This document shows, in pieces, positions 4,003-53,930 of a stretch of 64,000 nt of DNA. The notes under the pieces were generated by a model. It worked only from the letters and a program-made list of their open reading frames with translations, made no database searches and was not told the DNA's origin. This stretch comes from Alphaproteobacteria bacterium (GTDB lineage: Bacteria > Pseudomonadota > Alphaproteobacteria > UBA6615). The DNA is taken from NCBI GenBank assembly GCA_965261975.1, contig CBDHEC010000056.1:64001-128000 (forward strand). Reading direction: 5' to 3'. The position numbers and the translations under genes are program-made. The stretch's first letter is position 1; every line of letters starts with the position of its first letter.

Positions 4003-7000
4003 CCTCATCCGCGCGCGAATCCGGTGCGCTCCCCGCGCCGGGCCTCTATTCGATCGCGGCACACCGTCCGTTCCTTTCGGAACTGGCAATCGGAATTCTT
4101 TCCGCCTCCAGTGGCGATGAAGACCCCCTGGCGCTTGCGCGGACAACGGTGTTGCTGCCGACCCGACGCGCGTGCCGCGCGATGCAGGATGTGTTTCTCC
4201 GGCTGACCGATGGCGCCCCGCTGGTCCTGCCGCGGTTGATTCCGATCGGCGATATCGATGAAGACGAGATGCTGCTGACCGGTGAGCCGGCCGCGTTGCT
4301 GGGGGTCGGTGGCGAGGTGCCGCCGGCGGTGCCGGAACTGCGCCGGCGCGTGTTGCTGGCGCGGCTGCTGATGGCGCGCCCGATTGGGCGCACGCAAAAC
4401 CTGCCGGTCGATCATGCGATGGAACTGGCGGGTGAACTTGGACGCCTGCTGGACCAGGTTCAGACCGAGCGGCTCGATTTCGGCGCCCTGGAGAATCTGG
4501 TGCCCGATGCCTATGCCGCGCATTGGCAGGAAACCCTTGGCTTTTTGAAGATTCTGACCGAGACATGGCCGGCCGTGCTGGACGGCGAGGGGGCGATCGA
4601 CCCGGCGGAGCGGCGTAACCGCCTGCTGCAGGCACGTGGCGAGGCGTGGCGCCGGGACCCGCCGCGCGATCCGGTGATCGCCGCCGGCAGCACGGGCAGC
4701 ATCCCCGCGACCGCGGATCTGCTGGCGACGGTCGCGGGGTTGCCGTCTGGTTATGTCGTGCTGCCCGGGCTCGACCGCGTTCTCGATGCGGACTCTTGGG
4801 CCAATCTCGATTCCGGCCACCCGCAATTCGGCCTGCGGCAATTGCTGCAGCGTCTGGAGATGGATCGCATGGCTGTCGGCGAGTGGCCGGCTGCCACGGA
4901 TGTGCGCGGCAACGGGCCCGCGCGCGAACGGCTTATCGGCGAGGCGCTGCGTCCCGCGGCCACGACCCAGGCATGGCGCGAAGAGCGCGGCAATATCGGT
5001 GCGGATGCCTTGCAGGGGGTCGTGCAGATCGAGGCGCAGGAGCCGCATGAAGAAGCCGGTCTCATCGCACTGGTATTGCGCGAGGTGTTGGAGCATGACG
5101 GCCGTACGGCGGCGTTGATCACGCCGGACCGGGATCTCGCGCGGCGGGTGGCATCGATCATGGGTCGCTGGAGTGTCGATATTGATGACAGCGCGGGCAC
5201 GCCGCTGGCCGAGACGCCGCCGGGGATTTTCCTCCGGCTTGCGATCCGGGCGTTGCATGATGGCGTGGCGCCGATCCCGCTTCTGTCGATTCTCAAACAC
5301 CCGCTCGCGGCCGGTGGCCGCGCCCCGGCATCGTTCCGGGCCTCGGCCCGGGGGCTGGAACGGCTGGTCTTGCGCGGCCCGCGCCCGGCAAGCGGCTTTG
5401 CGGGGTTGCGCGCCGCGGCGCAAGCGCGCCACGAACAGGCTCTCGACCGCGCGGCGGAAGGCTTGTCGGGGCGCGACAATGCCGAAGCGCAAGATTATGG
5501 CGATGTGCTGTCCCTGATCGACCGGATTGCCGAGTTCGGGGCACCGATTACAGAGTTGCAGCAGAACTCGACGGTGATGTTGCCGGACTATGTGAGAGCC
5601 CATATCGCGTTCTGCGAGGCACTGGCCGCGAGCGACGAGATGCCCGGGGCGGCGCGCCTGTGGGCCGGTGATGCCGGGGAAGCCCTCGCGACATTCGTTT
5701 CGGAATTACTGGAGGCGGGCGACAGCCTTGGGCCGGTGCCGCCGGCACGATATCCCGCGCTGCTCGATTCACTTCTGGCCGGGCGTATGGTGCGGCCACG
5801 CTATGGGGCGCATCCGCGCCTGGCGATACTCGGCCCCCTGGAGGCGCGGCTTCAGCATTTCGATGTGACCATCCTGGGCAGCCTGAATGAGGGCAGCTGG
5901 CCGCCCGATCCGTCTGTCGATCCCTGGATGGGTCGCACGATGCGGGCGGATTTCGGGTTGCCGTCGCCCGAACGACGGATCGGGCTGAGCGCGCATGATT
6001 TTGCCCAGGCGTTCTGCGCGGGAGAAGTTGTCCTGACCCGCTCGGTGCGCGTGGACGGCGCGCCGAGCATGCCATCGCGCTGGTTGACCCGGCTCGGCGT
6101 GGCGACGCGGGCCCTGGACCTGCAGCCCGACCCCGACGCCGAGACCCGCGCGCGTGCCTACCGCGACTGGTGGCAGGAACTCGATGGACCGGGCGATGAA
6201 TCCGAGCCGGAATCAAGGCCCACGGTCCGCCCGCGCCCGTCGCCGCCCGTGGCCGCGCGCCCGCGCCGATTGTCCGTGACGCAGATCGAGACCTGGATGC
6301 GCGACCCGTATGCCATCTACGCGCGTGAGATTCTCAAGCTTCGCGCGTTGCCGCCGCTCGATCAGAATGCCGACGCGGCGATCTATGGCTCCCTGATTCA
6401 CGACATCCTGGATGGGTTCCTGGCTGAGTTACCGCCGGGCCCGTTGCCGGCCGATGCGGGCACCCGGTTGCACGCGCATGGTGCGTCGGCCCTCGCGCCC
6501 TATCGCAGTGTCCCGGCGGTCTGGACATTCTGGTGGCCGCGATTCCAGCGTATTGCCGACTGGGTACTGTCGGTCGAGGCCGGGCGCCGGGCGCGCCTCG
6601 AGGCGACCCATATGGAGGTCGCAGGTGCCATAGAATTTGACGCGCCGGGCGGCCGGTTCCGGTTGACGGCGCGCGCCGATCGCATCGACGAGCTGGTCGG
6701 CGGCGTGATCGCCGTGATCGATTTCAAGACCGGGGCGCCGCCGACCAAACGCGAGGTGCAGGCGGGATTCGCGCCGCAATTGCCTCTGGAGGCGGCAATG
6801 GTCGCCGAGGGTGGTTTCGCGGGTGTTCCGGCCAAACCGGTCGAGGAGCTGGCCTTCTGGCGCCTGTCGGGCGGGCGCGATCCGGGGCAGGTGCGCGATG
6901 CGGCCGATGACCCGGCGCAGGTCGCTGCCGAGGCCCTGGTCGGTGTAAAGGCGCTGGTGGCGCGGTTTGACGACCCGGCCACGGCCTATGAGGCGCGGCC

Positions 7001-7085
7001 GCGCCCCGATCACGCGCCCGCGTATTCCGACTATGAGCATCTGGCGCGGGTCAAGGAGTGGGCGAGCGGGGAGGGAGACATATGA
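3999..7085 (+). CDS. addB: Double-strand break repair protein AddB
   Basis: LPTRRACR, AAGSTGSIPATA, LSVTQIETWMRDPYAIYA, C-terminal PD-(D/E)xK nuclease (ADRID...IDFKTG). ATG at 3999 overlaps the tsaE stop (ATGA). Confidence 0.96.
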   Translation: MTSSARESGALPAPGLYSIAAHRPFLSELAIGILSASSGDEDPLALARTTVLLPTRRACRAMQDVFLRLTDGAPLVLPRLIPIGDIDEDEMLLTGEPAALLGVGGEVPPAVPELRRRVLLARLLMARPIGRTQNLPVDHAMELAGELGRLLDQVQTERLDFGALENLVPDAYAAHWQETLGFLKILTETWPAVLDGEGAIDPAERRNRLLQARGEAWRRDPPRDPVIAAGSTGSIPATADLLATVAGLPSGYVVLPGLDRVLDADSWANLDSGHPQFGLRQLLQRLEMDRMAVGEWPAATDVRGNGPARERLIGEALRPAATTQAWREERGNIGADALQGVVQIEAQEPHEEAGLIALVLREVLEHDGRTAALITPDRDLARRVASIMGRWSVDIDDSAGTPLAETPPGIFLRLAIRALHDGVAPIPLLSILKHPLAAGGRAPASFRASARGLERLVLRGPRPASGFAGLRAAAQARHEQALDRAAEGLSGRDNAEAQDYGDVLSLIDRIAEFGAPITELQQNSTVMLPDYVRAHIAFCEALAASDEMPGAARLWAGDAGEALATFVSELLEAGDSLGPVPPARYPALLDSLLAGRMVRPRYGAHPRLAILGPLEARLQHFDVTILGSLNEGSWPPDPSVDPWMGRTMRADFGLPSPERRIGLSAHDFAQAFCAGEVVLTRSVRVDGAPSMPSRWLTRLGVATRALDLQPDPDAETRARAYRDWWQELDGPGDESEPESRPTVRPRPSPPVAARPRRLSVTQIETWMRDPYAIYAREILKLRALPPLDQNADAAIYGSLIHDILDGFLAELPPGPLPADAGTRLHAHGASALAPYRSVPAVWTFWWPRFQRIADWVLSVEAGRRARLEATHMEVAGAIEFDAPGGRFRLTARADRIDELVGGVIAVIDFKTGAPPTKREVQAGFAPQLPLEAAMVAEGGFAGVPAKPVEELAFWRLSGGRDPGQVRDAADDPAQVAAEALVGVKALVARFDDPATAYEARPRPDHAPAYSDYEHLARVKEWASGEGDI

Positions 7086-10000
7086 GCCTCACCGATTTCG
7101 ATCCCGATCTGCTTGACCGGGTCAGCATGCGGCAACGCGACGGTGCGGATGCCGGAGTGAGTGCCTGGGTGTCGGCCTCGGCGGGTGCGGGCAAGACCCG
7201 GGTCCTGCGCGACCGTGTTTTGCGGCTACTGCTCGCGGGCGTGGCGCCCCAGCGGGTGCTGTGCCTGACCTTTACGAAGGCAGCCGCGGCGGAAATGGCG
7301 CGGCGGATCAATGCCGAGCTGGGCGATTGGGCGGTTCTGGACGACGGCGCGCTTCACGCGCGGCTATCGGAGTTGCTCGGTGCCGATCCGCCTGACGACG
7401 CGGCCCGCCGGGCCCGTCAGTTGTTCGCGCGCGTGCTCGAGGCGCCGGGCGGCATGAAGATCATGACCATCCATGCCTTCTGCCAGTCGGTATTGCGCCG
7501 GTTTCCGCTCGAGGCGGGCGTGGTGCCTCATTTTCAGGTCATGGAGGAGCGTGACGCCGGCGAGTTGCTGGAAGATGCGAAGGCAGAGTTGCTGGCCAGC
7601 GCGCATATGGACGATGGCGATCTGGGCATGTCGGTCGCCAATGTGGCCGGGCGGGTACACGAGATGCGCTTCCCCGATCTCCTCAACGAGATATCCCGCG
7701 CCCGGGCGCCGTTCGCCGATATGCTGCAGAACTTCGGCGGCCTCGACGGTGTTCGCGCGCGGATCGCCGGAACCCTCGACGTGGCACCGGACACCGACCC
7801 GGCGGTGGTTCTCGAAAGTGCATGTGCGGACAGCGCGTTCGACGGTGCCTCTCTGCGCCACGCGGTGGAGACCCTGGCCGGGGGGTCTTCGGGCGACAGC
7901 AAGCGCGCCGCCCTCATAGGTGACTGGCTCTCGGGAGATGCCGAGGCGCGTGGCGAAAGCTTCGATGCCTATGCGCTGGCTTATCTCACGCAGCAGGGAG
8001 AGCCCCGCAAGCAGCTCGCGACCAAGGCGATCCGGGAAAAGCATCCCGATGTAGATGCGGCGTTGCAGGCCGAGGGCGAGCGCCTGTTGGCGGTACGCGA
8101 ACTGCTGCGGAAAGCCGATCTGTACCAGGCGAACAGCGCCCTGATCCGGCTCGCGGCAGAGCTCGTGGCGCGCTACGAAGCACGCAAGGCCGCGAGCGGC
8201 CGGCTGGACTATGATGACCTGATCGCGCGCACGCGCAGCTTGTTGCGCGGCGACGGTGCGGCGGCCTGGGTGTTGTTCAAGCTGGACGGCGGCATCGACC
8301 ATGTCCTGATCGACGAGGCGCAGGATACCAACCCGGAACAATGGGACGTCGTGCTGGCCCTGGTGGAGGAGTTTTTCGCCGGGATGGGGGCCGGAGATGA
8401 AGCGGCCGAGGCTGCGGGGCTGCCCGCGCGTAGCGTGTTTGCCGTCGGCGATGCGAAGCAGTCGATCTACAGTTTCCAGGGCGCCGATCCGAGCCGGTTC
8501 GAGGCGGTCCGAAAGTTCCTTGAAGCCCGTGCGACGGATGCCCGACGGGCGTGGAAGAATGTCGCGCTCGATTTCTCGTTCCGTTCGTCTCGTCCCGTTC
8601 TCGAGGCGGTCGACCGGGTCTTTGCGGAACCCCGGGCCGGGGCCGGGGTGGTCGATCCCGATGCGCCGGCCCAACACACGCCGTTGCGGGACAGGGCGGC
8701 GGGCCGCGTCGAGCTCTGGCCACCGCTTGTCGTCGACAAGCTCGACGAACCCGAACCATGGAAGCCACCTGTCGATCCGGTCACGAGGGCCGGTGCGATG
8801 GAGCAGCTGGCCGAGTTGATCGCCACACGCACGGCCGACTGGCTCGCCTCCGACGAGATGCTCGAAAGCCAGGGACGGCCGATCGAGGCCGGTGACATCA
8901 TGGTGTTGGTGCGCCAGCGCGGTGATTTCGTCGAGGCCCTTGTCCGGGCGTTCAAGGCCCGCGGCGTGCCGGTCGCCGGTGTCGACCGAATGATCCTCAG
9001 CGAGCAGATCACGGTCATGGATCTCCTGGCTCTGGGTGCGTTCCTGCTGTTACCCGAGGATGATCTGAACCTAGCGACCTTGCTCAAGAGCCCGCTGATC
9101 GGTTTCGACGAGGATCTTCTGTTCACGCTGGCCCACGACCGGGGCGAGGACAGCCTCTGGCCGACGCTGGCCCGGCGTCGAGACGCGGATTCGCGATTTG
9201 CCGAGGCGCACGACCTGTTGGCCGACTTGCTGGCGCGGGTCGATTTCGAGCGCCCCTATGAGCTTTATGCCGGTGTGCTCGCGCGGGGCGGCCGGGCGCG
9301 GCTGTTTGCGCGCCTCGGACCCGATGCGGCGGACCCGATCGACGAGTTTCTCTCCCTTGCATTGACCTATGAGCGCAGCCACGCCCCGACCTTGCAGGGG
9401 TTCCTGCATTGGGTCGCCGCGGGGCAGGCGGAGATCAAACGCGACCTCGACCAGACCGGTGGCGCGGTGCGGGTGATGACGGTCCATGGCGCCAAGGGAC
9501 TGGAGGCCCCGATCGTGTTCCTGCCCGATACGACGCGCCTGCCGCGCATGCTGCCGAACATTCTCTGGGATGAAGACGATCGGGGGGCGTATTTCCTCTG
9601 GTTGCCCCGGGCCGATGATGCGGATGCCCGAACCCAGTCTCTGCGCGAACGGGTTCGTGCGCGGCGTGATGAAGAATATCGACGGCTTCTCTATGTGGCG
9701 ATGACCCGGGCCGAGGAGCGCCTCTATGTCTGTGGCTGGAACGCACCTGCCGAGGGTTCCTGGTACGACCTCATCCGCCCGGCAATGGCGTCGGTGGCGC
9801 GGGTTGTCGAAGACCCCGTCCTGGCGTCGATCGCGACCGAGGAGACACCGGTTCTTCGGCTGTCCGCACCCCAGCGCGGGGCGGTCGAGCAGGCCGAAAA
9901 TGACGCTCCGCCGCCGACGACAGCACCACCGGTCTGGCTTGGGCAGCCCGCACCACCTGAGCCCGCCCCGCCGCGGCCGCTGGCCCCGTCCAACCCCGGC

Positions 10001-10623: not shown

Positions 10624-10687
10624 TCGTTTCCAACGAAAGTTACACAGTGGCGCCTGCCCGCGCCCGGACCGCTGAAAAGGATTGAGC

Positions 10688-11008
10688 ATGCCCTCCAAAC
10701 AAATCACGGATGATTCCTTCGAGACCGATGTACTGCAGTCGGACAAGCCTGTTCTGGTGGATTTCTGGGCCGAATGGTGCGGCCCGTGCAAGCAGATCGG
10801 CCCGACCCTCGAAGAGCTCGCCAATGACAAGGATGGCGATGTCGTCGTTGCGAAGCTGAACATCGATGACAACCCGATGACCCCGTCGAAATACGGCGTC
10901 CGCGGCATCCCGACATTGCTGCTGTTCAAGGATGGCCAGGTGGCATCCATGAAGGTCGGCAGCCTGCCCAAGAGCCAGATTTACGATTGGGTTGAATCGG
11001 TCCTCTAG
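10688..11008 (+). CDS. trxA: Thioredoxin
   Basis: [20 protein letters not shown]; follows addA. Confidence 0.97.
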
Positions 11009-11092: not shown

Positions 11093-12169
11093 CTAGGTGG
11101 CCTGTCCCCGTTCGCGGTAGCGCTCGAGGAACTGACGGCCACTTTCGTCATACATGAACGAGAGCAGGGTGTATCGCTGTCCCTTGGTCACGTCGGTCGC
11201 CTCGTGCAGCAGGTTGCATGAGAATATCGCTGCTTCCCCGGTCGCCGGGCGGTAGCTCGCCTGGCCATATTCCGGGAACCGTAATTCTCCACCCTCATGA
11301 TCCTCGGTGTTGAGGTTGAGGGTCATGGCGAAACGTCGATGCGCGGTGCCCAGCGTGGTGTTGTCGCGATGGGGGCGGAAGAACCCGCCGACATCGGCGT
11401 CGTACCGCACGATCTTGAACTCCTCGACGAAGCGAATATCGCTGTGGAAGGCGTTCCTGATCTCCGGCAGCACGCGGCGTTCGATCCGGCTGCCGATCGC
11501 CTCGAGCAAATCCTTGTCGACGACATGATGGTCCCGTCGCCGCTTGGTCACACCATCGGTGAGGTGCACCATCTTGCCTTCCTCCATGCGCAGCGTGCCG
11601 GAAGGCTCGTTGCCCCGGCTCTCGAATTGTTCGATCAGCCACTGGCAAAAGGAGGGTGAGAAGACTTCGGGGATAACCAGGATGGGCGGGTGCAGCTTTG
11701 CGGGCGAGGGAACCGGGGGGTCCATCGCGGCGATTTCGGCTGCCGCGCGTTCGGCGATCGGGGTGTCGCCGGGCCGGAGCACCGTGCGGACCTTCTGATC
11801 GGGCCCGAAGACGAAGCCGATCAGCTTGCCGCGGGCACCGAACCGGCTCGCGACTTTCTTGTCGGCGTCGGACAGGAGAAAAAACCCTGGTTCGTTCTCG
11901 GCGGCGATTCTCTGCACCAGGGGTATCGGGTCGGCGCTGATCGCGAACAGATGTGCCCCGGCCTCCAGCATGGCGGGTGCGGCGCGGAACATCGCCTGCA
12001 ACTCGCCCAGTGCGCCGGGGTCCTTCTGGGTCGGGTACAGCAGGACGAACAGCGGCCCGCCACGGGCCTTGTCGTTCAGATTGATGATGATGTCGCGCTG
12101 ATCGGGCAGGAAGAAATTCGGCGCGCGGTCGCCCCGTTCGAGCAGGTTTTCAAGCTTTGGTGCGCTCAT
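11093..12169 (-). CDS. AhpC/TSA-like domain fused to a 2OG-Fe(II) oxygenase
   Basis: N-terminal GDRAPNFFLPDQ...LYP...FAISAD...LLSD redoxin fold; C-terminal FFRPHRDN (HxD), EGGELRFPE, LLHEA, GQRYTL. Confidence 0.8.
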   Translation of the reverse strand: MSAPKLENLLERGDRAPNFFLPDQRDIIINLNDKARGGPLFVLLYPTQKDPGALGELQAMFRAAPAMLEAGAHLFAISADPIPLVQRIAAENEPGFFLLSDADKKVASRFGARGKLIGFVFGPDQKVRTVLRPGDTPIAERAAAEIAAMDPPVPSPAKLHPPILVIPEVFSPSFCQWLIEQFESRGNEPSGTLRMEEGKMVHLTDGVTKRRRDHHVVDKDLLEAIGSRIERRVLPEIRNAFHSDIRFVEEFKIVRYDADVGGFFRPHRDNTTLGTAHRRFAMTLNLNTEDHEGGELRFPEYGQASYRPATGEAAIFSCNLLHEATDVTKGQRYTLLSFMYDESGRQFLERYRERGQAT

Positions 12170-26592: not shown

Positions 26593-26668
<76 letters not shown>

Positions 26669-26671
26669 TTT

Positions 26672-26712
26672 AAAACAAGGGCTTAGCGAGAAATCGCTAG
26701 GCCCTTTGTTTT
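26672..26712 (+). terminator. Stem-loop/terminator after tRNA-Ala
   Basis: AAAACAAGGGCTTAGCGA-gaaa-TCGCTAGGCCCTTTGTTTT imperfect inverted repeat. Confidence 0.75.
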
Positions 26713-26715
26713 GCC

Positions 26716-26734
26716 GGGTAAGCGCTGGGTAAGC
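26716..26734. repeat. GGGTAAGC direct repeat, possible integrase arm-type sites at an att junction
   Basis: GGGTAAGC-gct-GGGTAAGC directly after the post-tRNA hairpin. Confidence 0.45.
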
Positions 26735-26953
26735 AGGTGTCGCGATCTGGCCCGGGGATCGCTGGATGTTGTGGGGGCCTTGCTGGGCAATAGCCGAAGC
26801 GATGCGTTCGGTTTTCGGACCGATGCCACCTAATAACGAATCTCCTTGACCTGACTCGCCTGTGTTCCCATCTTCAGTGGGTCAGCCTCGTGGACTCGAG
26901 GGCGGGCATACATCAACGAGCTGCCGGACGGTGGCATCGATAAGGAGAAAGAC

Positions 26954-28135
26954 ATGCTGGAAAAATTCCGGTTCAAGACAGCGTACGCGCGTCGCATTCC
27001 CGATCCCAATTTCAAGAACGAGCACGGCACGGAGAGGCACCTCTTCGTCATGCCGGTGAAGTCGATTCCGACAGGAATCGGGCTCGACCCCAACGCCCGC
27101 AAGCCCAACATTCAGAAGCGTGTCTATCGTAAGGTGGAGGCGAGCCTGCTTCAGCAGGACGACAGCCCGAAGGGCACGTTCCACCTGAAGAGCAAGGGCA
27201 TCACGATCATCGCCCAGGCAGTGAAGCAGCTTGGCGACAACGAGTACGAGGTGGCCATCGAGTCCGGTATCCACGGGATCGTTGATGGCGGCCATACTTA
27301 CAAGCTCATCACTGAAAACCAGGATAATGACGATCTTTCCGATGACCAGTACGTGAACGTTGAAGTTCGCGTTGGAGTCCCTGAGCGGTGGATTCCGGAA
27401 ATTGCCGGCGGCCTCAATACGTCGGTGCAGGTCCAGGACATGAGCCTTGACGATCTCTCTGGTCAGTTTGAATGGCTGAAGGGTTGTCTTCGTGGTGAAT
27501 CGTACTTCGACAAGATCGCTTGGTCTGAGAACGATCCGGGTGACTACGATGCCCGTGACATCATCAGCATGCTGTTGTGCTTCAACGTGGCGCTGTTCCC
27601 GAACGATCAGGAAGAACATCCGGTCGCGGCGTACGAGAAGAAGTCTGCGGCTCTGAAGATGTTCGAGGAGAACACTGAGAGCTTCAAGCGCATGAAGCCG
27701 ATCATCAAGGACATCCTGCGTTTCCACGACATCGTCTCGATGCATGGTCGGCAGCTCTACAATCAGGCTGGTGGTGCCAAGGGCGGTTCACTCGCATTCG
27801 TCGATCACCGCAAGCGTAGGAAGTACCAGTTTACCTTCACGGGCGAGGAAGATGCGTTCCGGCTCGCGCCGGGTGCCCTCTATCCGATGATGGCGTCGTT
27901 CCGCTGGTATGTCGTCCAGGATCAGGAAACCCTGAAGATGAAATGGCGCGGCGGGTTCAAGGCGGTTCTTGCTGCCTGGCAGGATCTGGGCGGTGATCTG
28001 ATGCGGGCGACGGTCCAGACCAGCAACGAGCTGGGACGTAACCCGCAGTCGATCGGCAAGAGCCGCAATCACTGGTCGAATCTGCACTCGCGGGTCGTGA
28101 AGTACGACCTGATGAGCCAGCAGCAGTCTGCCTGA
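26954..28135 (+). CDS. AIPR (abortive infection phage resistance) family protein
   Basis: NARKP, FHLKSKGITII, GIVDGGHT (variant of the AIPR/ParB-like IVNG.QT motif), LNTSVQV; AAGGAG RBS; lower GC than flanks. Confidence 0.7.
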   Translation: MLEKFRFKTAYARRIPDPNFKNEHGTERHLFVMPVKSIPTGIGLDPNARKPNIQKRVYRKVEASLLQQDDSPKGTFHLKSKGITIIAQAVKQLGDNEYEVAIESGIHGIVDGGHTYKLITENQDNDDLSDDQYVNVEVRVGVPERWIPEIAGGLNTSVQVQDMSLDDLSGQFEWLKGCLRGESYFDKIAWSENDPGDYDARDIISMLLCFNVALFPNDQEEHPVAAYEKKSAALKMFEENTESFKRMKPIIKDILRFHDIVSMHGRQLYNQAGGAKGGSLAFVDHRKRRKYQFTFTGEEDAFRLAPGALYPMMASFRWYVVQDQETLKMKWRGGFKAVLAAWQDLGGDLMRATVQTSNELGRNPQSIGKSRNHWSNLHSRVVKYDLMSQQQSA

Positions 28136-28289
28136 CGAGACTTGGGCCGGGCGGTCTTGCGTTCCACGCAGGGCCGCCCCTCGCCCGTTCGCCTTGACGT
28201 CTGTACACCGCGACAATCACACCGATGGCGAGCATGCGGCCTTAATGTCTACCCAGGGTAGACTTGGTGGGCATGTTCAAGGGGGAAAC

Positions 28290-28741
28290 ATGAACGAGGA
28301 TCCCAAGGGCGGCGATCTTTTCATCGTCGATAACAGTATTTCTGGGTGGACGGCGCTCCGCTACCTGACCGAGTGGGCGGAGCTCGCGAAGAGCTTCGAC
28401 GTCGCCACTGGTTACTTCGAGATCGGCGGGCTGCTCGCCATGGAGGACAATTGGCAGCAGCTCGACAAGATTCGAATTCTCATGGGCGACGAGACGACGG
28501 CGCGTTCAAAGAAGGCGATCCTCGAGGCCATTCGCTCGAACGCAGAGGCACGCCTCGACGACAGCCTCGAGGCCGAGAAGACCGACCGGCCTTTCCTCGA
28601 TGGCGTTCCCGCGATCGAGGCGGCGCTGCGCGCAGGAAAGATCGAGTGCCGTGTCTATAATAAGGACAAGTTCCACGCGAAGGCCTACATCACCCATGCC
28701 AAAGTCGATGTGATCGGTGCCCAGGCGCTGGTCGGTTCGAG
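28290..28741 (+). pseudogene. N-terminal phospholipase D-like (HxK) nuclease domain, probably of a PLD-helicase defence protein, truncated by IS3
   Basis: FDVATGYF, IRILMG, KFHAKAYI, ALVGSS; the frame runs into the IS left end exactly at the GSS(N) motif. Confidence 0.75.
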
Positions 28742-28816
28742 TGACCTGCTCCCCTGAATTCGGTCCAGGGAAATTGAGAGAGTCCGGCTAACCTGAACCT
28801 CGAGGAGGAGGAGACG

Positions 28817-29095
28817 ATGAGCCGGAAGCGATACACCCCAGAACAGATTATCGGGATGCTGCGGGAGGCCGAGGTGCGCCTGTCGCAGGGCGAGACGGTC
28901 GGCGTGATCTGCCGAGGTCTGAGTATCTCGGAGCAGAGTTATTACCGCTGGCGTCGCGAGTATGGCGGATTGCGAGTGGACCAGGCGAAGCGTCTGAAGG
29001 AACTGGAGAAGGAGAACGCGCGGCTTCGGCGGGCGGTCTCTGATCTGACGCTGGACAAGCTGATCCTGAAAGAGGTTGCGGAGGGAAACTTCTAA
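28817..29095 (+). CDS. IS3 transposase OrfA (HTH)
   Basis: [36 protein letters not shown]; GAGGAGGAG RBS. Confidence 0.93.
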
Positions 29096-29967
29096 GCCCC
29101 GCACGCCGTCGTGCCGCGGTCGATCACGTGCAGAGCCGGTTCGATGTATCGGAACGCCGTGCCTGTCGTGTGATTGGCCAACACCGCTCGACGCAGCGCC
29201 GCACAGCGGTCCGTCGTGACGATGAAGACGCCCTGACGGCTGCGATTGTTGATCTGGCATCCAAATATGGCCGTTACGGCTATCGCCGGGTCGCGGCGCT
29301 GCTGCGTGCCCAGGGGTGGCACGTCAACGTCAAACGGGTGTGGCGTATCTGGCGGCGTGAGGGGCTGAAGGTGCCCTCAAAACAGCCCAAACGCGGGCGG
29401 TTGTGGCTCAATGACGGGTCGTGTGTTCGGCTCAGGCCGAGCTGGCCGAACCATGTCTGGGCCTACGACTTCGTCCAGGATCGCACGCATGACGGCCGTG
29501 CTATCCGGATGCTGACGGTGATCGACGAGTACACCCGCCAGTGCCTGGCCATCGAGGTTGCCCGCCGCCTGCGTCACGACGATGTGCTGCAGGTGCTGGC
29601 CGAGCTGTTCACGCGGCATGGGCCGCCGGATCACATCCGCTCGGACAACGGCAGTGAGTTCACTGCCATCGCCGTGCGCGATTGGCTGCCGAGGCTTGGC
29701 GTGAAGACGCTGTTCATCGAACCCGGGTCGCCCTGGGAGAACGGCTACAACGAGAGCTTCAATGGCAAGCTGCGCGACGAGCTGCTCAACGGCGAGATCT
29801 TCTACACGCTACAGGAGGCGACGGTGCTCATCGAACGCTGGCGCCAGCACTACAACACCGTCAGGCCGCACAGTTCGCTCGGCTACAGGCCACCCGCGCC
29901 AGTCACGGTCTTGCCGCCAATGGCCAGATCGAACTACCCTCAAACCGTCCGGACCCTCTCACAGTGA
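29092..29967 (+). CDS. IS3 transposase OrfB (DDE), expressed by -1 frameshift
   Basis: [48 protein letters not shown]; slippery G GGA AAC at 29083-29089. Confidence 0.93.
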
Positions 29968-35781: not shown

Positions 35782-36447
35782 TCAGCCCGCCGGGATTTCG
35801 CGCGCGGGGTCGTCGACATTGAGGCGGCCGGCGAGGATAACGGCTTGGGTGCGGCTGTTGACGCCCAGTTTCTGCAGGATCGCCGAGACGTGGGATTTGA
35901 CCGTCGCTTCGGATATTTCGAGATCATAGGCGATCTGCTTGTTCAGCTTGCCGTCCGACAGCATGCCCAGCACGCGAAGCTGCTGGGGGGTGAGTGTCGT
36001 CAGGCGCGCGGCGAGCCGCGCGTCTTCTTCTGACGTATCGGGCAGGTCGTTTACCCCGGTCGGCAACCAGTTGTTGCCGGCGATGATGTCGCGGACCGCG
36101 CCGCGGATGTCATCCATCGGCGCTGATTTGGGAATGAATCCGGCCGCGCCGTAGTCGACCGCCTGGCGCATGATGCGCGCGTCCGTGCTGGCGGAGATCA
36201 TCGCGATCGGGACCTCGGGGAATTCGGATCGCAGATAGACCAGGCCGGTGAAGCCACGCATCCCGGGCATATGCAGGTCGAGCAACAGGAGATCCGGTAC
36301 ACCCTCGCGGCGGATCGTCGCTTCCGCTTCCGCCAGGCTCGCGGCCTCGTGGAAAACGGCACCGGACATATCCTGCGCGATGGTTTGCTTGAGGGCGTCG
36401 CGCACCAGCGGATGGTCGTCCGCTATGACGATGACGCAATCAGACAT
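35782..36447 (-). CDS. NarL/LuxR-type response regulator (CrbR/ErdR/PrlR-like)
   Basis: IADDHPL, LLDLHMPG, GFIPKS, LTPQQ, NKQIAY, TVKSHVSAIL; convergent with the kinase. Confidence 0.93.
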   Translation of the reverse strand: MSDCVIVIADDHPLVRDALKQTIAQDMSGAVFHEAASLAEAEATIRREGVPDLLLLDLHMPGMRGFTGLVYLRSEFPEVPIAMISASTDARIMRQAVDYGAAGFIPKSAPMDDIRGAVRDIIAGNNWLPTGVNDLPDTSEEDARLAARLTTLTPQQLRVLGMLSDGKLNKQIAYDLEISEATVKSHVSAILQKLGVNSRTQAVILAGRLNVDDPAREIPAG

Positions 36448-36543: not shown

Positions 36544-37965
36544 TCAGGCGGCGGGGTCGAGAGCATCGGTTTTTCCGTCGGGCGCATCTATACCGGCGTA
36601 GAGCCGGTCGCGCAGGCCCGCGCCGTTGACCTCGCACATCGATCGCAACTCACCGTTGATCGGAACCTGGAAGGCGCACTGGGCGACGCGTTCACGCCCG
36701 GCGGGCGTGTCGAGTTCATCGGCGCTCATGAAATGATGGGCGACGACGGAGAAACGGTGCAGCTGGGTTCGGCCGGTCAGGGCCCGCAGGGCAAATCGCA
36801 TCGGCCGGTCGGGATCGAACCGCCGGGCCCAGCCCCAGCCCGTCGCGGGAACATCCCAGAAGAAGAAACGCGGCGCGCGAAACAGCATGCCGATGAGCCG
36901 CGCGGCGGCCTCCGACGGCCGGTCGGCGCGAAAGGTAGCACCGGCAAAACTGGCGAACAGCCGGTCGAGGAAGCGCCGGTCGCGCACGCTGCTCTCGGGG
37001 CTGAGGGGGACGAAGCGGGGGCCGGTGTCCACCTCGGCGGTCGTGCCGATCACGAAGCGGCTGCAGTCGGGGTGGGCCATGAACCACTGGTTGGCGGTGA
37101 GCCGGTCGCGGTTGGTTTCCTCGATCGACAGGCCGCGTTCGATTTCGGCCCACAGGGCCTCGGCGGTGATCCGGCCGATGCCGTCTTCTGTGCGGCCGAC
37201 ATGGGCCACGGGCAGCAGGCCGACCATGCGGAACACGTCGGCGTTGGCCTGGGCGAAGGCCACGATGTCGCCCACCTCGGGCAGATTGTCTTGTGTCACG
37301 GTGACCGTGCTGGCCACCCGCAGTGTGCGGCCGGTCTCGCGGCGGACCCGGCGGATCATGGCGACGAACCGCGCGCGCAAATCCATCAGCTCGGCCTCGC
37401 GGGTTGCGTACTTGAACTCCCGGTCGCGGCGCCCGCGTTGGGTGGTGTCGATGTGGAGGCTGAGTTCTTCCAGCCCGCCCTCGACCATCAGGCGCTTAAG
37501 CAGGTCCGGGTCGCGCAGGAAACCGTCGCCATGGCTCATCAGCATCGGGATCAGCTCGATGTCGCGCGCGTGGCGCAGAATCTCGATCACGTCTTCGGCG
37601 GGTCGCAGCGCGACCTCGCCGTCGGTCAGCTGCACGTTGCCCCAGGGGCCGAGCGCGGCGCGCAGCAGGTCGAGCTGCGCCTTGACGTCGGCCAGCGGCA
37701 GTTCCGGGGTGCGGTTGGCGTCGGCCCCCAGATAGCAGCCGCGGCAGGCGAAGTCGCATTTCGGCATCACGCCGATGGTCGCCCCGCAGCCTTCCTCGTG
37801 GCGGCCATACATCTGGTTGGCGGTCCGGAAACGCGGGTCGAGCCGCGCCCATGCCGCGTCCAGGCTGTCGCGTGTCTCGCGCGAGACCGGCCTGCGCAAC
37901 AGCCGCCAAAGGCGCGCCGCGCTGACAGGACGGTTGTGAGAGGAAGTGGTCCCGAGGAAACTCAT
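36544..37965 (-). CDS. Radical SAM protein resembling tetraether synthase (Tes/GDGT-MAS, MJ0619 family)
   Basis: CDFACRGC motif, QLTDGE, NLPEVGDIV...LPV...GR, HPDC, HFM...ERVAQC...SMCEVN. Confidence 0.8.
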   Translation of the reverse strand: MSFLGTTSSHNRPVSAARLWRLLRRPVSRETRDSLDAAWARLDPRFRTANQMYGRHEEGCGATIGVMPKCDFACRGCYLGADANRTPELPLADVKAQLDLLRAALGPWGNVQLTDGEVALRPAEDVIEILRHARDIELIPMLMSHGDGFLRDPDLLKRLMVEGGLEELSLHIDTTQRGRRDREFKYATREAELMDLRARFVAMIRRVRRETGRTLRVASTVTVTQDNLPEVGDIVAFAQANADVFRMVGLLPVAHVGRTEDGIGRITAEALWAEIERGLSIEETNRDRLTANQWFMAHPDCSRFVIGTTAEVDTGPRFVPLSPESSVRDRRFLDRLFASFAGATFRADRPSEAAARLIGMLFRAPRFFFWDVPATGWGWARRFDPDRPMRFALRALTGRTQLHRFSVVAHHFMSADELDTPAGRERVAQCAFQVPINGELRSMCEVNGAGLRDRLYAGIDAPDGKTDALDPAA

Positions 37966-45793: not shown

Positions 45794-46834
45794 ATGGAAT
45801 CGATCTACTACGTCATCTCGTGGCTCTGCCACCGGCGCTGTGCGCATTGCTACGACACGCGCTTTCGCCCCTATGTGCGCGATGAACGCGACGCCGTGGT
45901 GGGCGAGGCGGTGACGAACCATGCGAAGATCGTGGCCAATCTGCCCGACCGCATGACCTATCGCGAAAGCGATGACGGCCCGGAGAAACCGGGGCGTGTC
46001 ATCCTGTCAGGGGGCGAGGTGCTGCTCGACGAGATTCGCGAGCCGGTGCTCTATCCGGTGATGGACATGCTGCGCGAGAAGTACGCCGACGCGGGCGGGG
46101 TGCGGGTGGTGGTGCAGACGACCGGCGATCTGGTCACCGCGGAAATTCTCGACGAGCTGCTGGCCCACGGCCTGTGGCAACTCTCGATCACGGGTATGGA
46201 CGATTTCCATGTTGGCCATGAAGGCGACAAGCGCGTGCCCCTGATGGAACATCTGACGGGTCTGGTCGAGGCGGCGGGCTTGTTGCCGACGGGTCGGCGC
46301 CATGACGGCACCGACGGGCGGGGTAGCGAGACGCCTGTCTATTCCTTCATGGGGGCGAACCCGGAAGAGTGGATCGGGCCGATCTGGCCGCGCGGGCGGG
46401 CCTGGGAGAACGAACTCTCAAGCGCGACCCTCGACGATAATTTCTGCAACCGCTGGTCGGGCGGGCTCAACTTCATGAACCATGGAAAGATCGGTTCCGA
46501 GGTGTCGATCGAGCCCAACGGCAATGTCTATCCCTGCTGCCTCAAGACCAAGGCGCCGCTCGGCAACCTCACCGAGGAACCGCTCACGGAGATTCTGGAC
46601 AGCCTCGTCGGCCACCCGGCGTTCGAGGCGCTCAATGACGGCGCGCCGGAACGCATGGGCCTGGCCTTTGGCTGGGACGAGGACACCTTCCGCAAGAACA
46701 GCGAAACCAAGACGCCTTCGGGCGAGACCTACCGCAACCTTTGTATCGGCTGCGATCGGTTCCACGATCAGGTACTTGGCCCGCTCATCGAAGGCCTGCG
46801 CCAGGCGCGTCTGAGCCGGCGGACGGCCGCATGA
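45794..46834 (+). CDS. Radical SAM/SPASM domain protein
   Basis: CHRRCAHC, LSGGE, QTTG; C...IEPNGNVYPCC...GNL...CIGC auxiliary-cluster pattern. Confidence 0.9.
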   Translation: MESIYYVISWLCHRRCAHCYDTRFRPYVRDERDAVVGEAVTNHAKIVANLPDRMTYRESDDGPEKPGRVILSGGEVLLDEIREPVLYPVMDMLREKYADAGGVRVVVQTTGDLVTAEILDELLAHGLWQLSITGMDDFHVGHEGDKRVPLMEHLTGLVEAAGLLPTGRRHDGTDGRGSETPVYSFMGANPEEWIGPIWPRGRAWENELSSATLDDNFCNRWSGGLNFMNHGKIGSEVSIEPNGNVYPCCLKTKAPLGNLTEEPLTEILDSLVGHPAFEALNDGAPERMGLAFGWDEDTFRKNSETKTPSGETYRNLCIGCDRFHDQVLGPLIEGLRQARLSRRTAA

Positions 46835-50912: not shown

Positions 50913-51566
50913 ATGAAGTTATTCGGCTACTGGCGCTCACTCGCCGCGTTTCGAGTACGTATCGCGCTCAACCTCAAGGGCCAGCCCTTCGAGGTCGTCT
51001 CGACCGACCTGATCAAGGGCGAGCAGTTCGACCCGGAATATCTCAAGATCAACCCCCAGGGCGTTGTGCCGGCGCTGGTGACCGATGACGGGAACGCGCT
51101 GACCCAGTCGATGGCGATCCTCGAATATCTCGACGAGACCTATCCCGAGCCGGCCCTGCTGCCGACCGATGCCATGGCCCGTGCGCGGGTCCGGTCGCTG
51201 TGCATGATCCTGGTGGCGGACATGCACCCGCTGGTGGTGCCGCGGATCCGCAAATACATCACCCAGGATTGGGGCCATAGCGAGGAAGAACTCGCCGCGT
51301 GGATCGGCAACTGGACCAAGCTCGGGCTTGCCGCGATCGAGAAGCACCTGGTCGAAGACGGTACGTCGGGCAAATATTGTGAAGGCGATCAGGTGACCCT
51401 GGCCGACCTCTGCCTGGTGCCCCAGGTGGGTGCGGCGACCCTGTTCAAGATCCCGCTGGACGACTATCCGAACTGCGTGCGCATCTTCAAGACATGCATG
51501 GAGAACCCGGCCTTCTTCGACGCGCGGCCGCAGGCCCAGCCGGACTTCCCCGAGGACATGAAGTAG
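50913..51566 (+). CDS. maiA: Maleylacetoacetate isomerase (GST zeta)
   Basis: GYWRSLAAFRVRIALNLKG, NPQG.VP.L, QSMAILEYL, DMHPL, LADLCLVPQV, QPD. Confidence 0.9.
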   Translation: MKLFGYWRSLAAFRVRIALNLKGQPFEVVSTDLIKGEQFDPEYLKINPQGVVPALVTDDGNALTQSMAILEYLDETYPEPALLPTDAMARARVRSLCMILVADMHPLVVPRIRKYITQDWGHSEEELAAWIGNWTKLGLAAIEKHLVEDGTSGKYCEGDQVTLADLCLVPQVGAATLFKIPLDDYPNCVRIFKTCMENPAFFDARPQAQPDFPEDMK

Positions 51567-51578
51567 AAAACGGAAACC

Positions 51579-51600
51579 GGGCGGCTCAGCCGCCCTTTTT
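51579..51600 (+). terminator. Intrinsic terminator of maiA, overlapping the convergent gene's stop
   Basis: GGGCGGC-tca-GCCGCCC-TTTTT. Confidence 0.6.
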
Positions 51601-52209
51601 CTGAGCCCCCGCCGCGTCCATCAGCTGTTCCAGCACCTCGTAGGGCTGGGCGCCGACGACGCCCTTGGCGTCGGCTACATAGGTCGGAACGCCGGTCACA
51701 CCATACTGGCGGGATTTTTCCCAGTCCGCGTCGATCGCGGCCTCGAAGGTGCGTTTCTCCAGCACCTCGCGCGCGGCGGCACCATCGAGCCCGACCCCTT
51801 CGGCGATCTCCACCAGGAGATCGGCATCGCCGATGTTCTTGGCGTCGACGAAATAGGCCTCGTAGAGCTTCATGTGGATGGCATCGCCGCCCGGCTGGGT
51901 GTCGGCCCACTTGCCGAGCTCCTGGGCCAGCCGGCTGTTGTAGGTGTGGGTGCGCTTGCCGTAGGGCAGGCCTTCCTCGTCCATCCGCGCCTTCATGTTC
52001 TGGTACATGGCGTCGAGATCGACATCGCGGCCGGCGAAAAGCTGTTCCAGCGACTGGCCGTCGGCCGGCGTGTCGGGATGCAGCGGGAAGTGAACGGTCT
52101 GGATGTCGACGTCGTAGGCCTGGCGGAGTTTTTCAACACGCACGGTGCTGAGGTAACACCAGGGTCAAACGTAGTCGGCGAAGACCTCAAGGGTCACGGG
52201 ATCGGACAT
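51586..52209 (-). CDS. DsbA/FrnE-family oxidoreductase, predicted selenoprotein (Sec15 in U-P-W-C)
   Basis: ATG 52209 with an AAGGA RBS reads MSDPVTLEVFADYV-TGA-PWCYLSTVRVEKL..., matching the FrnE D..CPWC motif; also FPLHP, GVTGVP, GAQP. TGA at 52167-52165. Confidence 0.88.
52119..52164 (-). promoter_or_regulatory. Bacterial SECIS-like hairpin
   Basis: After UGA: lower stem CCUGG/CCAGG, upper stem UCAGCAC/GUGUUGA, loop CGUGC with G at position 2, loop starting 20 nt after UGA. Confidence 0.72.
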
Positions 52210-52304
52210 GGTTGGATTCCTTCGTGTGAGACGGCCTGCACCATAGCAGAGACAGGGCCGGGCGCGATAACATTGCCGGGACCTCTCACACCCCGGAGCC
52301 CGAT

Positions 52305-52748
52305 ATGACCGACCACACGATCCCGTCCCGCAAGCTCACCCATGATGGCATCCGTGCCCTAATTGATGCTGCCGTGGCCAAGGCCGACGAGATGGGGGTG
52401 CCCATGGGCATCGCCGTGGCCAATGACGGCGCGCGGATCGTCGGCTATCTCCTGATGGACGGCGCGCGCGTGCTGGCCCAGGACTCCGCCAGCGCCAAGG
52501 CGATGACGGCGGCGAGCCACCGCATGCCGACCCACGCCATCGATTACAATATCGGCATGGGCCTGTCGGTCTCGACGCAAGGCAAGGTGCTGCCGCTGCG
52601 CGGCGGCGTGCCGATCATCATCGACGGCTATTGCGTCGGCGGCATCGGCTGCGGCTCGGGCACGGGCGAAGAGGACCTCGTGGTGGCCAAGGCCGCGCTG
52701 GCGGCGATCGGCGCGGAGATTCCCGACGACGACGCCAGCGAGGGCTAG
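52305..52748 (+). CDS. GlcG/HbpS family heme-binding protein
   Basis: IAV..DG, MDGA, KAMTAA, GGVPI..DG..VGGIG.GSG...ED..VA. Confidence 0.9.
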   Translation: MTDHTIPSRKLTHDGIRALIDAAVAKADEMGVPMGIAVANDGARIVGYLLMDGARVLAQDSASAKAMTAASHRMPTHAIDYNIGMGLSVSTQGKVLPLRGGVPIIIDGYCVGGIGCGSGTGEEDLVVAKAALAAIGAEIPDDDASEG

Positions 52749-53930
52749 GCGGCGTCGCGCCGGACCATCACCACGAAGAAAAGCCAGGACAGGGTGGTGC
52801 AGCCGAGCATCAGCAGGCCGAGCTGCAGGAAAGAGGTCTGGACGAGGCTGGCCACCGCCAGGGTGCTCGCGAAACCGGCGCTCATCTGAATGAAGCCGCC
52901 CAGCGCCGCGGCGGAACCGGCGGTTGGAGGTGCGACCGCCGTGAGGGCGCCCGCCAGGCTGTTCGGCACCAGGAAGCCCGAGCCCCAGGAGTAGATGAAC
53001 ATCGGCACGATCAACGTGTAGGGCGTGTCGAGACCCATGAGCGCCAGCACCACCGTCGCGCCCGTTCCGGCAATCGCCAGGAGGCCGCCGATCGAGATCA
53101 TCCGGGCCCGCGAGACCCGCTGCGCCAGCCGGCTGGAGATATAGTTGCCGATGATGTAGCCGGCCGGCGTCGACAGGATGAAGAAACCGAACGCCTCGGG
53201 GGGTGACGCCCATGACCACGATGAAGGCGATGGGAGTCCCGGCGATGAAGGCCTGGAAGGTGGCGCCCATCGCGCCGGTGCTCAGGCTGTAGCCCATGAA
53301 ACGGGTCATGCGCGCGAGGCGCAGATAGGTCAGCGCGAGAGCGCCGGGACGGGTGTATTTGCGGGCCTCGGGCGGCAATGTTTCGCGCAGCGTCATCAGT
53401 GTCGCGAGCAGCACGCCGGCGCCGAGCAGCGCGGTGGCCAGGAAATTCGACTGCCAGCCGAAACGCACCTCGAGCTGCCCGCCGATCAGCGGCGCGACCA
53501 TGGGGGCAACCGCGAGGGACATGCCCAGATAGGCCATGGCCCGCGTGGCGGCGGGCCCGTCGGTGGTGTCGCGCACGATGGCACGCGAAATGACGATGCA
53601 GGTGCAGCCACCGATTGCCTGAACCACCCGGGCGGCAATGAGGAAGGTGATGTTCGGCGCCAGCGCGCAGGCCAGGCCGCCGAGGGTGAAAAGGACCAGA
53701 CCCGTGATCAGCGGCCGGCGCCGTCCGATCGCATCGGACAGCGGGCCGACCACCAGCTGCGCCAGCGCGAAGGCGCCGAGATAGACAGACACGGTCATCT
53801 GGGCGAGCGCCTGGCTGGTGTCGAGATGTTCCGCGATGGACGGCAGGGACGGCAAGAAGATCGTGATGGCCACCTGGCTGGCCACCATCAGCGACACCAG
53901 CAGGGCGATCGGGGCAGGCTGATCCGTCAT
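52745..53930 (-). pseudogene. Bcr/CflA family MFS efflux transporter with a +1 frameshift
   Basis: FLPSLP, GPLSDAIGRR, RAIVRD, FGWQ; frame switches at the G6 run 53198-53203; span 1186 bp = 3n+1. Confidence 0.8.

Follow-up and report, generated by a model that had tools for sequence, protein, structure and literature searches.

A probable selenocysteine-containing, FrnE-type member of the DsbA family hidden behind an in-frame TGA codon in an uncultured alphaproteobacterium

INTRODUCTION

A study of Sargasso Sea sequences published in 2005 described a new selenoprotein family, named "DsbA-like protein," which consisted of nine sequences assigned to COG2761, carried a UxxC motif and a predicted selenocysteine insertion sequence (SECIS), and had widespread cysteine (Cys) homologs (PMC1088965). 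DsbA-like selenoproteins were then reported in four sequenced genomes by a 2006 survey, among which are those of Anaeromyxobacter dehalogenans, Desulfovibrio desulfuricans, and Desulfotomaculum reducens (PMC1794560), and a 2026 review lists a "DsbA-like protein form 1" with the domain PF01323 and the UxxC motif (PMC13188914). AACY01178397 and NIP15863.1 are published examples of these proteins. Here, we examine a gene of this kind, located on the minus strand (51586..52209) of a stretch of 64,000 nucleotides from the contig CBDHEC010000056.1 (assembly GCA_965261975.1, positions 64,001 to 128,000 of the forward strand) of an alphaproteobacterium of the UBA6615 lineage; this whole stretch is referred to as the window. 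The comparison of the sequence with its relatives indicates that the locus is very probably a genuine selenoprotein gene, coding for a probably cytoplasmic, FrnE-type thiol-disulfide oxidoreductase of 207 amino acids, in which the UGA at 52167-52165 would be read as selenocysteine (Sec).

The FrnE proteins are cytoplasmic disulfide reductases/isomerases with a CP(W/F)C active site, which are involved in the tolerance to cadmium, diamide, and oxidative stress; a C-terminal CxxxxC tail, to which a role in regenerating the active site has been attributed as a proposal, is present in many, even though not in all, members (PMC8945050).

RESULTS AND DISCUSSION

An in-frame TGA at the active site of a complete DSBA domain

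The reading frame that opens with the ATG at 52207..52209 (minus strand, as for all the elements of the gene) runs through MSDPVTLEVFADYV, meets the TGA at 52167-52165, and goes on with PWCYLSTVRVEKL, which begins with P-W-C-Y, down to the stop codon TGA at 51588-51586. The TGA codon at 52165..52167 is the only one occurring in frame between the ATG and the stop of the gene, and it falls at residue 15, the first position of a U-P-W-C motif. A Shine-Dalgarno-like sequence, GAAGGAA (52217..52223), stands 7 nucleotides (nt) 5' of the ATG, with its AAGGA core (52222-52218) at 8 nt from it. The TGT at 52156..52158 codes for Cys18, the putative resolving residue of the UxxC center, which is the sole Cys of the protein and is invariant in an alignment of 36 sequences. 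The same alignment shows the residues V174, P175, and T176 of the G-V-T-G-V-P-T motif to be invariant, and we take the region of Pro175 (codon at 51685..51687) to be the cis-proline loop, which faces the active site in DsbA and other thioredoxin-fold enzymes.

Standard calling of open reading frames (ORFs) gives instead an ORF of 185 amino acids (51586..52143), with a GTG (52141..52143) as start codon, which has neither the first strand of the fold nor the active site. The original prediction, made from the sequence and its ORF list, had noticed that the ORF called from 52143 is devoid of an active site, had extended the frame upstream to the ATG at 52209 with its ribosome-binding site, and had placed the UGA at the first active-site position of a DsbA/FrnE domain. 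Its coordinates and letters agree with the sequence, the ORF list, and the translation, and the position of the UGA is confirmed by the domain, sequence, and fold matches reported hereafter.

When the TGA is read through, and only then, the Pfam domain DSBA (PF01323) matches the protein from end to end (amino acids 6 to 197, model positions 1 to 190 of 191, E value of 6.3e-36), the short form losing the first ~20 positions of the model. The protein thus combines PF01323 with U15-P-W-C18, the features of DsbA-like selenoprotein form 1. In the AlphaFold2 model built from the 36-sequence alignment (predicted local distance difference test score of 91.8, predicted template modeling score of 0.86), the first strand comprises residues 5 to 11, and a helix starts at residue 16, just past U15. 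The best sequence match in the PDB is FrnE from Deinococcus radiodurans (E value of 2e-23, residues 2 to 196 of the query), with its CPWC aligned with the U/CPWC of the query, and the six best fold matches are represented by five FrnE entries and SCO1869, with template modeling (TM) scores of 0.83 to 0.86 and root-mean-square deviations (rmsd) of 2.2 to 2.5 Å, the best one being 5cp1 (TM score of 0.86). Kappa glutathione S-transferases (GSTs), YjbH, HCCA isomerases, and periplasmic DsbA proteins rank after FrnE, with TM scores of 0.5 to 0.73. The predicted structure, therefore a model, shows an FrnE-like fold, and, with regard to the FrnE subfamily (cd03024), the UPWC aligns with the CPWC of 5cnw and 5cp1 and the fold matches that of FrnE. 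Moreover, COG2761 corresponds to the FrnE-type COG, in agreement with the names that the homologs bear in JGI. The best NCBIfam hit was a partial match to the Rcas_1661 (seleno)lipoprotein family, at 40.5 bits with respect to a cutoff of 190, and no specific model was found.

Since the active site is at residue 15 and residues 1 to 11 lie within the first strand, a signal peptide could hardly be accommodated, from which it follows that the protein is probably cytoplasmic. The C terminus (AAGAQKKGG) does not contain a CxxxxC motif.

The TGA codon is paired with Cys codons in relatives

A scan of species-representative genomes matched 325 stretches, of which 242 proved to be relatives; the 80 best of these were retained as the loci designated below by L numbers. 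Among these best 80 of the 242 relatives, the codon aligned with the in-frame TGA is TGA in 19 loci and TGC or TGT in 61, always within the context D-Y-V-x-P-W-C-Y, so that the Cys/TGA pairing in homologs, suggested in the original prediction as a check, is in fact present. The window and the 19 TGA loci are considered together below as the 20 TGA sequences, which correspond to 18 distinct rows. None of the loci is identical to the window, the closest being L001, with a protein identity of 96%. The TGA loci from L001 to L014 belong to alphaproteobacterial or Rhodospirillaceae-type metagenome-assembled genomes (MAGs), and those outside the Alphaproteobacteria belong to the Gammaproteobacteria (L018), the Burkholderiales (L022, L029, and L035, one of which is a Nitrosovibrio), and the Pseudomonadales (L062).

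The database proteins nearest to the 207-residue product reflect the same situation. Out of 120, 85 are full length with the D-Y-V-C-P-W-C-Y motif, and 30 are short forms of 184, 185, 188, or 168 amino acids that begin just past the TGA and include the closest relatives (71 to 92% identity), which bears out the expectation that standard pipelines would shorten the gene. The remaining five, full length as well, deviate from the motif, at the Sec position in four cases and by an F replacing the second Cys in one. The residues occupying the Sec position are R (P0043 and P0072), G (P0089), and W (P0097); G and W would fit gene callers using genetic codes 25 and 4, and R could correspond to a real CGA codon or to another artifact.

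A TGA is one base away from both TGC and TGT, and the broken frame of a nearby transporter gene (52745-53930) indicates that errors or decay do occur in the window, which would leave room for a nonsense mutation, or a sequencing or assembly error, in the Cys codon of what would be a pseudogene. However, the same TGA is found in 19 other species-representative genomes of three proteobacterial classes, which are not copies of a single assembly, their proteins being 64 to 96% identical to that of the window, and 30 independent database clusters are shortened at the same place. Furthermore, both flanks of the TGA are conserved as protein, and the hairpin described in the next section is kept only in the TGA forms. 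An accidental origin of the codon appears scarcely credible in front of this recurrence.

In particular, the residues L, E, V/I, F, D, Y, and V are kept over codons -8 to -1 relative to the TGA, with two to six synonymous codons each; Leu-8 (an Ile in one of the 20 TGA sequences) is encoded by five codons, Val-1 by three, and Glu-7 and Phe-5 by two each. From codon +1 onward, the residues are likewise conserved with synonymous variation. The fact that the 14 codons upstream of the TGA are kept as protein, with synonymous variation, indicates that this region is translated. It could still be argued that the true start is the GTG at 52143, or a codon further downstream, and that the 14 upstream codons are not translated, the product being the 185-residue protein without active site that ORF calling delivers and that 30 of the 120 nearest database entries resemble. 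This conflicts with the conservation just described and with the absence of a Shine-Dalgarno-like motif before the GTG, different from the ATG at 52209. An upstream ATG, in the identical place or close to it, recurs in all 19 related TGA loci, and AAGGA or GGAAGG motifs precede the start in most alphaproteobacterial relatives, as read by eye. Moreover, the codon corresponding to the GTG is GGG in 5 of the 20 TGA sequences, which fits the database forms of 168 amino acids, with a start located further downstream, and the short form would be deprived of strand 1, of the start of helix 1, and of the first ~20 positions of the Pfam model. The GTG at 52141..52143 is not the real start, and we consider a short product beginning there or further downstream to be highly improbable.

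A SECIS-type hairpin conserved in the TGA forms only

Downstream of the TGA, the messenger can form a SECIS-type hairpin (52133..52151, minus strand), which is made up of the 5' arm UCAGCAC (52151-52145), the loop CGUGC (52144-52140), and the 3' arm GUGUUGA (52139-52133) and lies 13 nt, to the stem, or 20 nt, to the loop, from the UGA; the GTG used as start by ORF calling is located inside its loop. According to the rules for bacterial SECIS (bSECIS) elements quoted in the 2026 review, the loop measures 3 to 9 nt, with a G in its first two positions, the upper stem 4 to 16 bp, and the distance from UGA to loop 16 to 37 nt, with an energy of -7.5 kcal/mol or lower (PMC13188914). The hairpin agrees with each of these rules (PMC13188914), having a loop of 5 nt, a stem of 7 bp, a spacing of 20 nt, an energy of -7.8 kcal/mol, and a G at the second position of the loop, followed by U or G. 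With regard to stability, the hairpin alone reaches a z-score of -2.97 (1 of 200 shuffles as good), and the 60 nt 3' of the UGA adopt a two-stem shape of -18.1 kcal/mol (z-score of -1.9; 10 of 200 shuffles as good), but thermodynamics taken alone is only suggestive.

The comparison among relatives is more informative, and it reveals a constraint at the RNA level that is specific to the TGA forms. Over the 18 distinct rows, the upper helix is 99.2% paired, a value matched by none of 500 shuffles, and registers slid along the alignment are paired at 28 to 43%. At the pair 21-31, 11 rows have C-G and 7 have U-A, mismatched intermediates being absent, which represents a compensatory change. All seven pairs are in register in 19 of the 20 TGA sequences versus none of the 61 Cys loci. 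The codon choice follows the same pattern: Arg+9 is CGT in all 20 TGA sequences versus 1 of the 58 Arg codons of the Cys loci, Leu+5 is CTC in all 20 versus 18 of 61, and codon +10 ends in T in all 20 versus 6 of 61. Thr+7 is ACC in 19 of the 20 TGA sequences, and codons +8 and +10 do not vary in their third base; farther downstream, in contrast, each of the invariant Pro, Leu, Thr, and Gly residues is encoded by three to four codons. Cys relatives having the same residues (e.g., L017, with L-S-T-P-R-I-E) employ other codons, and the helix is lost.

The original prediction had described a hairpin with two stems, fitting the bacterial SECIS model. Its upper stem is sustained by these data, being conserved and specific to the TGA forms, whereas the lower stem (52163-52157 with 52125-52119) is paired at 62.7%, no better than shuffles (465 of 500), and is not conserved.

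Among the Cys forms, the gammaproteobacterial locus L074 (10037-10078, plus strand) retains six of the seven in-register pairs (UAAGUAC...GUAUUGA) after a TGC, and this hairpin may be a relic SECIS left by the replacement of Sec with Cys.

An alternative hairpin, UGGUGUU / ACCUC / AGCACCG, can be drawn at 52143..52161 (minus strand), with 99.2% pairing and no two-sided change. Its loop starts 10 nt from the UGA and lacks a G at both of its initial positions, at variance with the bSECIS rules (PMC13188914). We rank it below the SECIS-type hairpin both for this reason and because its 5' arm consists of Trp and Cys codons fixed by the protein, without any two-sided change. In the five sequences having GGG at codon +8, this alternative hairpin can be extended to 9 bp and is the predicted minimum-energy fold. 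As a speculative and doubtful idea, a weaker variant of the proposal on mobility made below, the two conserved hairpins (52161-52143 and 52151-52133) might act as a switch that tunes Sec insertion against termination.

Sec machinery next to the gene in two related loci

The locus L029, from the Nitrosovibrio MAG, contains selA at 6623-7990 (TIGR00474, 581 bits with respect to a cutoff of 268), selB at 7987-9906 (TIGR00475, 426 bits with respect to a cutoff of 242), and tRNA-SeC at 9859-9954, and its TGA-bearing gene, which has the same orientation, follows from 10001, 46 nt past tRNA-SeC. In L022, from a Burkholderiales MAG, selA, selB, and tRNA-SeC occupy the region of ~4.6 to 7.9 kilobases (kb) on the strand opposite to that of the TGA-bearing gene, which is at 10001, about 5.3 kb apart. 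The selA and selB of L029, searched by tblastn against the 80 loci and the window, gave matches only in L029 and L022. In both loci the 3' end of selB and tRNA-SeC share a segment, of 48 nt in L029 (7987-9954, plus strand) and of 59 nt in L022 (4575-6424, minus strand), an arrangement that matches the selC-in-selB overlap cited from Mukai 2021 in PMC13188914; the examples observed here appear to be betaproteobacterial.

From the conservation of the TGA form and from the presence of selA-selB-selC beside the gene in 2 of the 19 related loci, we infer that the organism would decode Sec and that its genome would carry selABCD.

Weighing Sec insertion against termination and read-through

On this basis, it is possible to hypothesize the following mechanism. 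The mRNA hairpin at 52151-52133 would be a bacterial SECIS and would bind the complex of SelB, GTP, and Sec-tRNA(Sec). On arrival of the ribosome at the UGA, which precedes the stem by 13 nt, Sec would be inserted in place of termination. The product would carry the U15-P-W-C18 center at the N terminus of helix 1, in a thioredoxin fold with a helical insert, where Sec15 would act as the nucleophile on substrate disulfides and Cys18 would resolve the mixed selenenylsulfide.

Several observations weigh against this reading. With regard to the machinery, selA, selB, selD, and tRNA-Sec were not found in the 64-kb window by ARAGORN, Rfam, and Pfam on 47 ORFs, its only tRNA being a tRNA-Ala (by ARAGORN, and the sole Rfam match too); no sel genes occur within 10 kb in the other 17 of the 19 TGA loci, and selD is in none of the neighborhoods of the 19. 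The window does not contain another candidate gene with an in-frame TGA either: a relaxed scan for such sites with coding-like flanks gave four sites, of which only the DsbA one is credible, and one of the four is the ordinary stop of a response regulator at 35782. With regard to the hairpin, no SECIS family of Rfam matched anywhere in the window at gathering thresholds, the first and last bases of the loop are an unpaired C and C, unlike the optional pattern that mostly occurs according to the model (PMC13188914), and one pair of the helix is broken in L012. The z-score of the 60-nt region, already modest in the window, is +0.4 in L029 and -1.1 in L062, and the mean energies of the 25-nt region (-7.2 kcal/mol in Sec forms versus -5.4 kcal/mol in Cys forms) separate the two groups poorly and were not used as evidence. 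The compensatory change concerns a sole covarying pair and maybe a single evolutionary event, and the alternative hairpin, which is mutually exclusive with the SECIS-type one, is equally well kept.

A further reading accepts translation through the UGA and ascribes it to a near-cognate Trp or Cys tRNA, or to a reassigned codon (codes 4 and 25), so that the hairpin would only stimulate read-through. The database relatives with W, G, or R at the Sec position would speak for it, even though they may be gene-caller translations under other codes. As to reassignment, TGA is the stop of 22 of the 42 Pfam-supported genes of the window, the selenoprotein gene included, which indicates that UGA is not reassigned. 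The position pairs with the catalytic Cys, which is the classic Sec/Cys signature, the hairpin fits the SelB-type SECIS rules, and selA, selB, and tRNA-Sec are close to the gene in L029 and L022, so we hold read-through or reassignment to be very unlikely. The insertion of Sec at the UGA is the reading that we retain.

In terms of annotation, the consequence would be a redox enzyme of 207 amino acids with a Sec-Cys site in place of a protein of 185 amino acids without active site. The uncultured alphaproteobacterial lineage would be a probable Sec user, which bears on the selenium demand of marine bacteria. Moreover, with its compact natural SECIS, which measures 19 nt and for which the Sec versus Cys forms provide a clean comparative control, the locus can serve as a test case for selenoprotein finders.

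Origin and distribution of the Sec form

A quick maximum-likelihood tree was computed on 81 proteins, with the Sec/Cys column set to gap and the residues encoded by the SECIS left in. The window falls within a starred clade of 14 Sec forms with 99% support, and all 20 Sec forms are in a starred clade of 33 rows, together with 13 Cys forms. The Sec/Cys label requires three changes on the tree, versus a mean of 18.1 for shuffled labels, and, with 94% support, eight betaproteobacterial Cys forms make up the sister group of the three betaproteobacterial Sec forms. The starred branches alone are compatible with a single origin of the Sec form. The hairpin UCAGUAC-CG[U/G]GC-GUAUUGA is common to alphaproteobacterial (L013 and L014), betaproteobacterial, and gammaproteobacterial lineages, and this sharing suggests that the Sec form could have had one origin, followed by replacements of Sec with Cys and/or by lateral transfer.

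A more far-reaching proposal is that the Sec FrnE-type form, whose SECIS hardly varies, is mobile among Alpha-, Beta-, and Gammaproteobacteria, with or near selA-selB-selC, and that in aerobic marine Rhodospirillaceae-type bacteria it would be, in place of formate dehydrogenase, a principal reason for which Sec decoding is kept; we regard it as speculative and doubtful.

Neighboring genes and other observations in the window

The gene is flanked by a convergent GST gene (50913..51566, plus strand; Pfam GST_N) and by a divergent gene for an HbpS-like protein (52305..52748, plus strand; PF03928), both of which are reported as context only. The GST neighbor accompanies the gene in 11 of the 14 alphaproteobacterial TGA loci, and the HbpS-like neighbor is full length in six related loci and partial in two. 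At most, these neighbors suggest a redox or detoxification setting. Outside the clade of the window, the gene has other neighbors, and in the neighborhoods of L014, L018, L022, L029, L035, and L062, no common functional context was found beyond the sel genes.

The MFS-type (major facilitator superfamily) transporter gene at 52745-53930 (minus strand), mentioned above, is split over two frames, with pieces starting at 53930 and 53101. Its counterpart in L002 is 92% identical, with one gap in 1,215 nt, and is a single open frame, from which it follows that the window carries a frameshift, due to decay or to an assembly indel.

Elsewhere in the window, an ORF of 358 amino acids (11093-12169, minus strand) joins an AhpC/TSA peroxiredoxin-like domain (amino acids 13 to 128) to a 2OG-Fe(II) oxygenase domain (amino acids 252 to 339), and a thioredoxin gene (10682-11008) adjoins it. 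The tRNA-Ala(GGC) gene at 26593-26668 is followed, after ~2.4 kb, by an integrase of the insertion sequence type (rve and HTH_21) at 29128-29967, and the region 26593-29967 may represent an insertion at the tRNA gene. Finally, a radical SAM protein (36544-37965, minus strand) and a SPASM-domain protein (45794-46834, plus strand) are encoded ~8 kb apart, and the interval carries genes for an amidohydrolase, an MFS transporter, and a glycosyltransferase; this region may be a peptide- or cofactor-maturation cluster.

Comparison with known systems

The SECIS of Escherichia coli fdhF is a stem-loop internal to the coding sequence, just 3' of the UGA and at a spacing of ~11 nt, in which the G/U of the apical loop are contacted by SelB. 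The hairpin of the window is likewise a stem-loop within the coding sequence after the UGA, at a spacing of 13 nt compared to the approximately 11 nt of fdhF, but it has no sequence similarity to the latter, is shorter (7 bp with a 5-nt loop), and does not show an evident bulged U.

As for the protein, periplasmic DsbA of the E. coli type and the kappa GST/HCCA branches share with it a thioredoxin fold into which a helical segment is inserted (Foldseek probability of 1.00), but at identities of 12 to 19% they are clearly more distant than FrnE. Membership among the periplasmic DsbA proteins was considered and discarded: these carry a signal peptide, whereas the window protein appears to have no N-terminal leader, and their structures match it with TM scores of only 0.5 to 0.65 and identities of 14 to 18%. 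SCO1869 from Streptomyces coelicolor (3gl5, a putative DsbA oxidoreductase) is much closer (E value of 1.3e-19, TM score of 0.86, rmsd of 2.2 Å, 32% identity), but it has Cys in place of Sec, and its PDB title describes the function as uncharacterized. The closest structural counterpart is FrnE from D. radiodurans (DR_0659; 5cnw, 5cp1, and 5coh), with TM scores of 0.83 to 0.86, rmsd of 2.3 to 2.5 Å, and identities of 31 to 32%, in which the CPWC aligns with the UPWC and which, as is probable for the window protein, does not have an N-terminal signal sequence. Different from the window protein, it presents a Cys in place of the Sec, and it bears the C-terminal CxxxxC tail, whereas the window protein ends at residue 207 without the tail. 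In this respect the latter resembles the FrnE forms of S. roseofulvus and D. maricopensis, which are tail-less (PMC8945050).

With DsbA-like selenoprotein form 1 (PMC13188914), the gene of the window shares PF01323, the UxxC motif with Sec in the first position, widespread Cys homologs, and a SECIS-like hairpin right after the UGA, whose small apical loop contains a G. The gene has been placed in this family by domain, by motif, and by the published description of the family, and it shows every testable defining feature of the DsbA-like UxxC selenoproteins. The linkage to selA-selB-selC in two betaproteobacterial genomes is observed here, and no mention of it for the DsbA-like selenoprotein family was found in the available portions of the cited papers. 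Selenoproteins of the DsbA-like UxxC type were already described in 2005 (PMC1088965), and the gene of the window is a further example of them and not a new kind of biology, to which its linkage with the sel genes in the two betaproteobacteria adds a small new point.

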